Assembly: GCA_013141435.1 (NCBI GenBank)
Contig: JABFQZ010000014.1
Location: forward strand, 49,792-113,791
Reading direction: 5' to 3'
Length of the DNA: 64,000 bases
Origin: Ferruginibacter sp.
Lineage (GTDB): Bacteria > Bacteroidota > Bacteroidia > Chitinophagales > Chitinophagaceae
A model generated the notes under the pieces. The model was not told the DNA's origin. It was given only the letters and a program-made list of their open reading frames with translations, and made no database searches. The position numbers were made by a program, and so were the translations under genes. This document shows, piece by piece, positions 3,185-5,160 of this stretch. Each line of letters starts with the position of its first letter. The stretch's first letter is position 1.

Positions 3185-3498
3185 AAACGTTATTTTTTAT
3201 TGGACTTTGGAAGTTATATTTAGTTTAAAGGTATTAATTTACAACTACGCAAAATAAAAAATTGTTAAATAATACTTCCACAAAATACTATTTACTATTA
3301 GTATAATTTTCATTGCGGCATAAAGTATTGCCTAGGTAAAAGCTTAATTGAAATACAACTTTTCAAATGTGCGACGCCAATGAAGCCGAATACAGAACAA
3401 ATGCTTGTTACCAAAAAATAAAAAATGATTACAATTATGTTAATGCATTTCCATTTAATACTATCGTTTAATGCTAAATATTTCTTCATTTTATGTGC

Positions 3499-4653
3499 TT
3501 AAATGTTAGCAATTTCTCTCCAAGATACAAGGCCAATATCATTATTTAAAATTTCATTTTTAGTTCCGCCATACAATAACATTACTGTGGCATTTTGATT
3601 ATATTTTTTCCAATATTTCAAACCCTGAAAATCTTTACTATCTAATTTTTTTGCAGATTTAATTTCAATTCCTATTAAATCACTATTTTTTTCTAATAAC
3701 AAATCAATTTCATTACCTGCGCTATCTCTAAAAAAAAACATTCCTCCATTTACGCCTTCATTCGTTCTGTTTTTTTTAATTTCTGTAATATTCCAGTTTT
3801 CAAAAATTGCTCCATATCTAGCATGTTTTATCAAATTTAATTGGTTGGTAATACCTAGCAAATAACACAACAACCCTGTATCATAAAAATATAATTTTGG
3901 GCTTTTTACAATGCGTTTGTTTAAATTGTTGTGCCATGGTTGTAGCAAATAAATAATATAACTGCTTTCTAATACGCCTAGCCAAGCCTGTATAGTTTTT
4001 GCATCTACACCTACAGTTTTAGCCAATTCATCTTTGTTTAATAACTGCCCAGCATAATTTGCACATAAATAAATAAACCTATTAAAAGCTGCAAAGTTTG
4101 TGATGTTTCTAAGTAAGCGTACATCTCTTTGCAAATAGGTTTGTACATAAGCATTCATCCATTTGGTAGGGTTCAGTTTTTCGTTCCATATTTCTGGATA
4201 GCCTCCCATTAGTATATGATGATTTACGTTGCTTGTGGCTAGTTTTGCTTTTTGTAATTCTGCATACGATAGTGGCAATAATTCTAAATAGCCTGCACGC
4301 CCTGCTAATGATTGACTAATTTGCTCTTGCAATAAAAAATTATTAGACCCTGTAAGGATAAATTGCCCTCGTTTTGAATTCGTATCTAGCATGCCCTGCA
4401 ATTGTCTAAATACATTAGGCACACGCTGCACTTCATCAAAAATAGCTCCCTTGGCATATTTTTTCATAAAATTTTCAATATTATCATCGGCTTCATTTTG
4501 CAATAATGGGTTTTCAAAACTTAAGTATGGTTTGCCTTTAAATAGCATTTTACTTATAGTAGTTTTACCGCTTTGCCTTGGTCCAGTTACACACATAGCT
4601 CTAAACTGTGTAAGAGAGTACTTAGCATCTTTTAATATTTGTCTTTCTATCAT
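3499..4653 (-). CDS. AAA+ ATPase with C-terminal DUF4143 / PD-(D/E)XK nuclease-like domain (AAA_14 family)
   Basis: Walker A GPRQSGKTT, Walker B IFDEVQ, ILTGS, KSPKLYFYDTGLL, EIDLL...IEIKS. ATG at 4653 preferred over the TTG at 4671. Confidence 0.88.
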   Translation of the reverse strand: MIERQILKDAKYSLTQFRAMCVTGPRQSGKTTISKMLFKGKPYLSFENPLLQNEADDNIENFMKKYAKGAIFDEVQRVPNVFRQLQGMLDTNSKRGQFILTGSNNFLLQEQISQSLAGRAGYLELLPLSYAELQKAKLATSNVNHHILMGGYPEIWNEKLNPTKWMNAYVQTYLQRDVRLLRNITNFAAFNRFIYLCANYAGQLLNKDELAKTVGVDAKTIQAWLGVLESSYIIYLLQPWHNNLNKRIVKSPKLYFYDTGLLCYLLGITNQLNLIKHARYGAIFENWNITEIKKNRTNEGVNGGMFFFRDSAGNEIDLLLEKNSDLIGIEIKSAKKLDSKDFQGLKYWKKYNQNATVMLLYGGTKNEILNNDIGLVSWREIANI

Positions 4654-4656
4654 ACG

Positions 4657-4836
4657 ATTCCGTTTTTGCAAAAATATGTAAAAATGGAATACAATTCCGT
4701 TTTTACATAATATTACAATTATGGAATCAAATTCCCGATTTACATAAATATGTAAATCAGGAATTTAAAAATAAAAATATACAGCGACAAAAAATACTAA
4801 ATTCCCGATTTGCATAAACATGCAAATCGGGAATTT
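4657..4836. repeat. Array of four related ~34-38 bp dyad-symmetric elements upstream of the ATPase
   Basis: ATTCC starts at 4657, 4694, 4731 and 4801; consensus ATTCC-nn-TTTRCA-N6-TGYAAA-nn-GGAAT; copy 4 (4799-4836) is a perfect 17-bp inverted repeat, copy 2 has a degenerate right arm. Confidence 0.85.
4669..4676 (-). promoter_or_regulatory. Bacteroidota sigma-A -7 element for the ATPase gene
   Basis: Minus strand TATTTTTG matches TAnnTTTG, 15 nt upstream of the ATG at 4653; lies inside dyad copy 1. Confidence 0.5.
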
Positions 4837-5160
4837 TTGTCTGTATTACAATGTTAGTATGCATTTTAACAGTTTAAAACCATGTGAAAAATTACTATTA
4901 TATATTCTCACCATCCTTTTTTACAAATTTATTTGCATACACTCTATTGGTATATTTCAAAAAAAATAATTCCTTCTTAGAAAATAATAATAAGTAATTT
5001 GTTTAATAACAAAACAAAAGATGCCTTCTAATCACCTATCTTATATAACCATATTAATTAAAAAGGCAAGTACCTTTATACCTAAAACATAAAAGTATAA
5101 GAAAGACAAAAAAAACAAAACTTTGTCGCAATTTTACCCCAATTTCAATGACAATGATAG

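Follow-up and report, generated by a model that had tools for sequence, protein, structure and literature searches.

The locus described here raises the question of why a gene for an AAA+ ATPase with a nuclease domain should be preceded by an array of palindromes that ends three nucleotides from its start codon. In the window, which is the whole 64-kb stretch of DNA that was analysed, from a Ferruginibacter sp. (Chitinophagaceae) of drinking-water metagenomes, positions 4657-4834 hold four copies of a 34-bp palindrome (hereafter dyad), directly upstream of a gene on the minus strand that encodes a 384-amino-acid AAA_14/DUF4143 protein. We propose that this array is probably an autoregulatory operator, bound by the product of the gene itself. 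The array is strictly linked to the gene across orders and genomic contexts, it overlaps a predicted promoter element, and other subfamilies of the same protein family carry repeats of their own at this place.

The copies share the consensus ATTCC-N3-TTTRCA-N6-TGYAAA-N3-GGAAT and are arranged as follows:

4657-4690, no strand: dyad 1 (proximal), with 3 nt between the dyad and the ATG and a -7 box in its spacer
4694-4727, no strand: dyad 2 (distal), 37 bp from dyad 1, its arm toward dyad 3 degenerate
4731-4764, no strand: dyad 3, a near-perfect palindrome with 18-nt arms, 94% complementary
4801-4834, no strand: dyad 4 (outermost), a perfect palindrome with 17-nt arms and a bidirectional terminator-like hairpin score

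An earlier reading of the window made from its letters (the sequence-only reading) had placed the copies at 4657, 4694, 4731 and 4801, with spacings of 37, 37 and 70 bp, and these values proved exact. Its consensus had two spacer nucleotides (nn) between ATTCC and TTTRCA, and there are in fact three (N3). The symmetry that it had seen in the arms is present in copies 3 and 4; copies 1 and 2 are less symmetric, copy 1 having TTTGCA opposite TGTAAA and copy 2 having one degenerate arm. When the 64 kb were searched with a degenerate dyad pattern allowing up to 3 mismatches, the four sites of the array were the only matches, for a chance expectation of 0.01, and four matches were obtained in none of 100 shuffles. 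No Rfam family matched anywhere in the window at the gathering score. The DNA contigs of four metagenome runs showed no variants or joints within the array; all that they showed was assembly breaks close to it. Contigs of the drinking-water metagenome runs X3 and X5 stop inside or just past the dyad array (4807-5025), and in run X1 a second contig of low depth opens with a diverged dyad and continues into unrelated sequence.

The same palindrome was recognised by eye directly before the ATG in almost every ortholog locus. Orthologs were taken from 80 loci of Chitinophagaceae, Cytophagales, Flavobacteriales, Sphingobacteriales and Saprospiraceae genomes, which represent at least four Bacteroidota orders, and with the window added they made 81 loci (about 490 kb, flanks of +-3 kb), which were scanned with a weight matrix. 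Of the 165 dyads detected, all but four, which lie 3' of the stop codon, are located 0-220 bp upstream of the gene start; no dyad was present elsewhere in the flanks. A proximal dyad is present in 66 of the 81 loci and ends 3-5 nt before the ATG. Two tandem dyads are the usual form, the four copies of the window being at the high end, and of 78 pairs of adjacent dyads, 72 have a period of 37-38 bp. The four dyads on the other side are perfect, lie just past the stop codon and leave the gene bracketed by dyads (approximate positions):

L008:2322-2355
L010:4160-4193
L035:4189-4222
L040:3543-3576

The ATPase gene and pyrF are convergent in L008 and L010, with the 3' dyad between them.

When metagenome contigs were searched for the exact pattern, 49 loci came up, and in 33 of them the dyad adjoins the gene. 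The other 16 matches are mostly contig ends, four chance look-alikes in unrelated sequence, and relics, the last being solo or decayed dyads and two dyads fused to a gene remnant. The dyads are therefore not dispersed independently of the gene. Since no neighbouring gene is common to all 81 loci, and since the window and its closest relatives (L001 and L002) are similar in DNA sequence from the outermost dyad onward, the conserved unit consists of the array and the gene, and of nothing else.

The commonest neighbours in the 81 loci are same-strand sensor histidine kinase genes (26 loci), other synteny being lineage-specific. In L017, L020, L022, L033, L072 and others the gene lies inside a same-strand tandem array of histidine kinase paralogs (kinase, kinase, dyads and gene, kinase), and in some ortholog loci it lies beside FtsX-like permease paralogs; such settings might reflect function, or insertion into paralog arrays prone to recombination. 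L012 carries a mirror-image duplicate of the two-dyad array (L012:46-220). About 140 nt upstream of the gene in L032 there is a solo palindrome of the L014-paralog type (GGACAAATCCGGAAT-TTG-ATTCCGGATTTGTCC); no paralog was detected in L032.

The proximal dyad overlaps a predicted promoter element. On the gene strand it reads ATTCCATTTTTACA-TATTTT-TGCAAAAACGGAAT, followed by CGT and then by the ATG, which bears out the sequence-only reading in that copy 1 contains TAnnTTTG and begins at a distance of 4 nt from the A of the ATG:

4669-4676, minus strand: predicted sigma-A -7 box TATTTTTG (TAnnTTTG), at the centre of dyad 1, assigned by consensus

In mapped flavobacterial promoters the TAnnTTTG -7 box is found at -12 to -5 (PMC9723704). 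Transcription is predicted to start near 4664, which would give a leader of about 11 nt, and the gene's own transcript would thus contain only about 8 nt of the array. TAnnTTTR occupies the centre of 62 of 66 proximal dyads, the counts for distal and for other dyads being 14 of 69 and 5 of 30, an enrichment which suggests that the proximal copy is specialised as a promoter. A convincing -33 TTTG at the expected spacing could not be placed in the window, and we claim the -7 box alone. The sigma-70 scan is inapplicable to Bacteroidota promoters, and its only relevant output was a terminator-like call on dyad 4. RNA runs were searched for the window locus and for the Emticicia ortholog, and neither turned up.

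The symmetry of the arms appears to result mainly from the match of both arms to the half-site consensus ATTCCAGATTTGCA, and not from base pairing. In 80 distinct non-proximal dyads, overall pairing was 88.3%, compared with 85.3% in shuffles, and three of the 14 stem pairs (7/28, 8/27 and 12/23) were unpaired in 31-49% of the dyads. Across loci, Watson-Crick pairing at these three positions equals the independence expectation, and most double changes come from a single pair, 13/22 (C:G versus T:A). The co-variation between arms that the sequence-only reading had described is thus seen at pair 13/22 in dyads of other loci, and is weak or absent elsewhere. The half-site variant, TTTGTA or TTTGCA, follows the clade of the protein and not the taxonomy of the host: the 13/22 variant clade contains Chitinophagaceae and Cyclobacteriaceae proteins that are 77-82% identical, whereas Chitinophagaceae proteins with the other half-site variant are 64-66% identical to this clade. 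A half-site consensus that shifts with the protein and not with the host is as predicted for a dimeric DNA-binding protein. Residues 311, 347, 320 and 312, in the nuclease domain, track the half-site variant; because this variant marks essentially one clade, the association is confounded by phylogeny and was not retained.

Other subfamilies carry different repeats at the same position. Each of the paralogs (25-46% identity) that lay in the fetched loci has a palindrome of its own immediately ahead of the start codon, for example GGACAAATTCGGAAT-TCA-ATTCCGGATTTGTCC, or CCGATATTTTT-N12-AAAAATATCGG, which is again 34 bp long. Dyads abut the start in the Allochromatium, Emticicia, Moraxella, Runella and Desulfosarcina homologs, the Moraxella dyad having perfect 21-nt arms with TATAAT in the centre and the Runella dyad 27-nt arms. 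Viral contigs contained only 6 homolog loci, four of them with their own palindrome before the start. Homologs were also found on 355 plasmids, all below 60% identity. Six Rhodobacterales/Hyphomicrobiales plasmid genes, 59-89% identical to one another and about 32% to the window protein, share a 39-bp dyad that ends at the ATG, CCTTGCAAAT-cTTCCA-N5-6-TGGAGt-AATTGCAAGG. A second alphaproteobacterial group (54-77% identical) carries direct repeats instead, 3-4 of them, at a period of about 22 bp, or of 26-27 bp in L149, its most divergent member (54-56%). Since direct repeats cannot form hairpins, the feature common to the family would be a repeated protein-binding site that diverges with the protein. 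Orthologs almost always have the same array and distant members have repeats of their own, which agrees with the cognate dyads that the sequence-only reading had envisaged upstream of homologs.

Within the six-gene plasmid group the dyad has an inner block whose orientation in Rhodobacterales (TTCCA..TGGAR; L138, L151, L153) is the reverse of that in Hyphomicrobiales (TGGAG..CTCCA; L142, L150, L152). The outer block, CCTTGCAA..TTGCAAGG, is fixed in both orders, and the dyad lies within 40 nt before the ATG.

The enrichment of such repeats was measured as the top score of any repeat, inverted or direct, within the upstream 120 nt, for 24 family representatives and 289 non-redundant control genes of the same loci. 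A score of at least 9 was obtained for 16 of the 24 family genes and 45 of the 289 controls (p=1.6e-7), the starts being annotated or hand-curated in the family and derived from open reading frames in the controls. At a score of at least 12 the counts were 10/24 and 10/289; inverted repeats alone, at the threshold of 9, gave 12/24 and 29/289, and an earlier, stricter repeat test 7/15 and 15/289.

The gene and the parts of its product that matter here are the following:

3499-4653, minus strand: AAA_14 + DUF4143 gene, 384 amino acids, ATG start (translation, Pfam, PADLOC PDC-S01)
4561-4584, minus strand: Walker A GPRQSGKT, residues 24-31, invariant in 24 orthologs
4426-4446, minus strand: Walker B region AIFDEVQ, residues 70-76 (D73 E74); D73, E74 and Q76 invariant in orthologs and paralogs
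3889-4095, minus strand: predicted winged-helix-like segment, residues ~187-255, three helices and a basic beta-hairpin wing in the AlphaFold2 model
3649-3741, minus strand: PD-(D/E)xK nuclease core, residues ~305-335 (D310, E315, D317, E330, K332), invariant in orthologs

The protein matches Pfam AAA_14 (1.4e-29, 103.1 bits, cut-off 27), Pfam DUF4143 (1.3e-46, 158.7 bits, cut-off 28.1) and the PADLOC PDC-S01 model PDLC04790 (E = 1.2e-99), which spans residues 1-365. A match to nSTAND3 was below threshold, and neither the sequence search of solved structures nor the NCBIfam search gave anything useful for the 384-amino-acid protein. A longer open reading frame begins with a TTG and reaches 4671; this start is used by no ortholog. 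Relatives of 384 amino acids at 65-90% identity number in the thousands, and DUF4143 is listed within the PD-(D/E)xK superfamily (PMC3424549). The Walker A and B motifs and the C-terminal nuclease motif are present, as the sequence-only reading had stated (GPRQSGKT, IFDE and D317...E330-x-K332, invariant in 24 orthologs). G24, R26, G29, K30 and T32 are invariant across the paralogs at 25-46% identity, as are E315, D317, E330 and K332, the last three being invariant in 5 distant paralogs as well as in the 24 orthologs.

An AlphaFold2 model built from the 24 orthologs (mean predicted local distance difference test score, pLDDT, of 73) starts with an AAA+ core (residues 1-135) and a helical lid, continues with a three-helix bundle and a basic hairpin, and ends in a C-terminal alpha/beta domain that bears the invariant D317, E330 and K332. 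The closest solved folds identified with Foldseek are the archaeal AAA+ ATPases SSO1545 and PABY2304 (2fna, 2qen), followed by clamp-loader subunits, Avs4 and the Can2/Card1 nucleases. Segment 187-255 gives sub-threshold profile matches to HTH_36, MarR_2 and HTH_29, and in its beta-hairpin wing, modelled with a pLDDT below 50, K246, R247, K250 and K253 are invariant. Identities counted by hand on the alignment make this segment the part most conserved from one subfamily to another, at about 50% with the alphaproteobacterial subfamily versus 32% overall. A winged-helix DNA-binding function of residues 187-255 is likely, judging from the model. Beyond the 3' end of the gene, a 59-codon open reading frame with a hydrophobic stretch (3310-3489, minus strand, 10 nt past the ATPase stop) is unconserved even in the closest relatives, whose ATPase is 87-89% identical, and is therefore probably not a gene.

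We propose that the gene product would recognise the 14-bp half-site ATTCCAGATTTGCA through the winged-helix segment, and would bind as dimers or as a higher oligomer to half-sites spaced alternately 20 and 17 bp. On the proximal dyad, the bound protein would mask the -7 box and start site and exclude RNA polymerase, so that the gene would be autorepressed. The dyads further upstream (two dyads being the norm, and four being present here) would add cooperative occupancy, and the outermost one may double as a hairpin insulator. That the binder is the gene's own product, that binding represses and in which oligomeric state it occurs are points that we infer. From the operator proposal of the sequence-only reading we keep the gene-linked array, found in orthologs and matched by other repeats in other subfamilies; the defence or selfish label that it suggested is unsupported at this locus, and so is its idea that the array restrains a nuclease. 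A broader proposal would make AAA_14/DUF4143 proteins in general sequence-specific DNA-binding ATPase-nucleases with cognate arrays in their own promoters, each array being an assembly address for an ATP-dependent oligomer that silences the nuclease, and also the boundary of one-gene gain, loss and exchange; we regard this generalisation as doubtful.

Several observations weigh against the operator reading. The 3' dyads of L008, L010, L035 and L040 (4 of 81 loci) are not explained by autorepression alone, and some co-variation between arms does exist, at pair 13/22 and as C:G and G:C pairs in copies 3 and 4. The winged-helix call comes from a model of moderate confidence (mean pLDDT 73, below 50 in the wing) and from profile matches below the Pfam thresholds. 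No obvious repeat is present upstream of the Thermus and Subdoligranulum homologs, and the enrichment test compared genes whose starts had been defined unequally. Nor are TTCCA/TGGAA enriched upstream of the family (0.375 per 120 nt in the 24 family genes, 0.367 in the 289 controls). A shared recognition word was considered on the grounds that ATTCCA..TTTGCA, TTGCAAAT-cTTCCA and the TTCCAAT of the second alphaproteobacterial group look alike; as TTCCA is not enriched family-wide, this likeness between subfamily sites is treated as anecdotal.

The history of the locus also bears on the alternatives. In two comparisons of closely related genomes with and without the gene, homology breaks inside the dyad array. 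L087 keeps a solo dyad (L087:1008-1041) and lacks the gene present in L055; L119 keeps one dyad and a decayed second (L119:5535-5600), and has an FtsX-like permease gene where L115 and L098 have the ATPase gene. In L104:1633-1951 and L117:245-497 dyads are fused to a gene remnant that comprises residues ~306-384 only (the nuclease core); these are separate loci, their deletions end near the same point, and the L104 remnant has an in-frame ATG (MVITGNEIDL...). Conflict of the protein tree with taxonomy, variable contexts, relics and in-array breakpoints fit a gene that is gained and lost, and do not reveal its function. In the window, pyrF and a GDSL lipase gene (671-2098) are close to the ATPase gene, as in the Lacibacter/Chitinophagaceae loci L008 and L010. 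The slot of the ATPase gene differs, past the beta-lactamase-like gene in the window and between lipase and pyrF in L008 and L010, which suggests local relocation.

Palindromes could also act as nucleic-acid hairpins, either as intrinsic terminators or insulators or as a structured RNA leader that controls translation or stability. The array, as RNA, folds into stacked hairpins (-75.6 kcal/mol, z = -11.9), but any palindrome folds in silico and the fold energy therefore does not discriminate. The outermost dyad (4799-4836), which also weighs against an operator, is terminator-like on both strands, with 17 pairs, 6 of them G-C, and T-rich tails. In the window, the upstream gene is divergent and there is thus nothing for a dyad terminator to terminate; in many other loci a same-strand upstream gene ends just before the array, and the 3' dyad lies between convergent genes in L008 and L010. 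Pairing slightly above that of shuffles and compensatory changes at pair 13/22 would also suit hairpins, whereas the three stem pairs that are unpaired in 31-49% of dyads would not. The -7 box inside the proximal dyad in 62 of 66 loci, which leaves about 8 nt of array on the gene's own transcript, and the direct repeats found at the same place in one subfamily argue further against this explanation, which we consider unlikely; the stacked RNA-hairpin leader that the sequence-only reading had kept as its alternative is disfavoured by the same direct repeats and by a leader of about 11 nt. It is quite unlikely, in our view, that the dyads are operators of a different host-encoded regulator, the ATPase gene being one member of its regulon. 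This possibility draws on sequence evidence that does not single out the binding protein, and on a few solo dyads near other genes, such as the one 10 nt before a VOC-family gene in L091. However, the dyads hardly ever occur apart from the gene, the 81 loci show no co-conserved regulator gene, the site variant goes with the clade of the protein across orders of hosts, and the different repeats present at the same place in other phyla fit a binder that diverges with the gene.

Two further explanations assign the dyads a role in DNA breakage or exchange. As recombination or mobility sites they would bound a one-gene cassette, or as fragile palindromes they would drive gain and loss, the gene being a selfish module. 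The breakpoints inside the array in both presence/absence pairs (L087 versus L055, L119 versus L115/L098), the four loci with dyads on both sides of the gene, the solo dyads and the fusions to gene remnants in L104 and L117 all point in this direction, as do the conflict between protein tree and taxonomy and genomic contexts that vary widely, often within tandem paralog arrays. Yet the 3' dyad occurs in only 4 of 81 loci, no recombinase is co-conserved in these loci, the locus is syntenic within Ferruginibacter, and in L119 a different gene replaces the ATPase gene, which is not a clean excision. We consider this reading very improbable; it could stand beside an operator role and is no substitute for it. 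Finally, the nuclease domain of the protein might itself recognise or cleave the dyads, which would then be a self-mark that keeps the enzyme inactive or seeds an ATP-dependent oligomer, and not a plain operator of transcription. Palindromes are bound by dimers of restriction-type nucleases, the PD-(D/E)xK catalytic residues are invariant, and residues 311, 312, 320 and 347, those that go most closely with the half-site variant, are in the nuclease domain. But this association is confounded by phylogeny, a cleavage site in the enzyme's own promoter would be self-destructive without protection, and the fixed position of the dyad on the -7 box is more simply explained by regulation, which makes a nuclease target highly improbable. 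Some of these alternatives can coexist with an operator role.

The surroundings of the gene give little reason to view it as a defence or selfish module, as the sequence-only reading had suggested. Its neighbours in the window encode an FMN-binding protein, PyrF, a GDSL lipase, a beta-lactamase-like protein, an acyl-CoA dehydrogenase and a 3-hydroxyacyl-CoA dehydrogenase, and none of the eight flanking proteins matched a PADLOC model. Orthologs sit among histidine kinases, permeases and housekeeping genes. Surroundings rich in defence genes, the basis on which PDCs were nominated, are thus not found at the window locus. No neighbour is conserved across the 81 loci, and the gene has no obligate partner, as for a single-gene system. 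PDC-S01 reportedly ranks fourth by frequency among predicted defence systems in prokaryotes and is described as unvalidated (PMC12988326). The one PDC-S01 gene tested, an unrelated one, gave no protection against T7, T5 or T4 in E. coli B (bioRxiv 10.1101/2024.09.26.614923), and a family member of Thermus thermophilus is up 6.6-fold with a plasmid present (PMC4406477). Plasmid-borne members (L150, L153, L151, L136, L141, L142) adjoin repC, integrase/recombinase genes, or toxin-antitoxin/Abi genes (HipA-family YjjJ, VapC, AbiEii), in contrast with the metabolic context of the Bacteroidota orthologs.

Operators bound by the product of their own gene are a familiar kind of system; what is new here is the apparent presence, in the promoters of so large an AAA+ nuclease family, of subfamily-specific site arrays. 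Sequenced prokaryotes encode PDC-S01 proteins by the tens of thousands, and these are classed as defence genes, with an uncharacterised mode of action (PMC12988326). Conserved promoter arrays specific to each subfamily offer a first concrete handle on these proteins: they predict that PDC-S01 proteins bind specific DNA, they supply the exact sequences of candidate sites, and the natural pairs of protein and site could serve to work out a recognition code. They also call for care with the defence label, as this ortholog group lies among housekeeping genes with a tightly conserved regulatory element.

Among the closest known systems is PDC-S01 itself (AAA_14 + DUF4143, COG1373): the window protein has both of its Pfam domains and a full-length match to its model, and the locus is the same single gene for an ATPase with a PD-(D/E)xK nuclease as described (PMC12988326, PMC3424549). 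It differs in that the window locus is not in a defence island. No cis-element was found described for AAA_14/DUF4143 or PDC-S01 proteins in the literature searched. Archaeal Orc1/Cdc6 with its ORB repeats, and DnaA with the DnaA boxes of the dnaA promoter, are AAA+ proteins that act through a DNA-binding domain on repeated sites by their own gene. The resemblance lies in an AAA+ protein with a winged helix, predicted in the case of the window protein, and in arrays, some of them of dyads, next to or on its own gene, dnaA being autoregulated. However, the window protein bears a nuclease domain and belongs to another AAA+ branch, its closest folds being SSO1545 and PABY2304, and the window locus, known here through the sequence of its array and gene, shows no sign of an origin.

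The plasmid Rep initiators RepE, pi and TrfA are winged-helix proteins that bind iterons and inverted repeats, and an inverted repeat on their own promoter mediates autorepression. Their sites diverge with the protein, as do those of the AAA_14/DUF4143 family, which has inverted repeats or direct repeats of about 22 bp and many plasmid-borne members. Rep proteins, however, have neither ATPase nor nuclease, and the Bacteroidota copies are chromosomal, with no replication role indicated. STAND NTPases such as MalT and Avs4 join an NTPase to a DNA-binding or nuclease effector and oligomerise when activated, and the short sites to which MalT binds lie in arrays, in mixed orientations. The window protein, which has Avs4 among its structural matches, is far shorter (384 amino acids) and lacks a sensor repeat domain. 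AbiE and other toxin-antitoxin and Abi modules are small and mobile, and their DNA-binding part represses its own promoter via inverted repeats abutting the start codon. In contrast with these modules, a single polypeptide would here hold both the binder and the potential toxic activity, no partner gene being conserved at the loci of the family gene.

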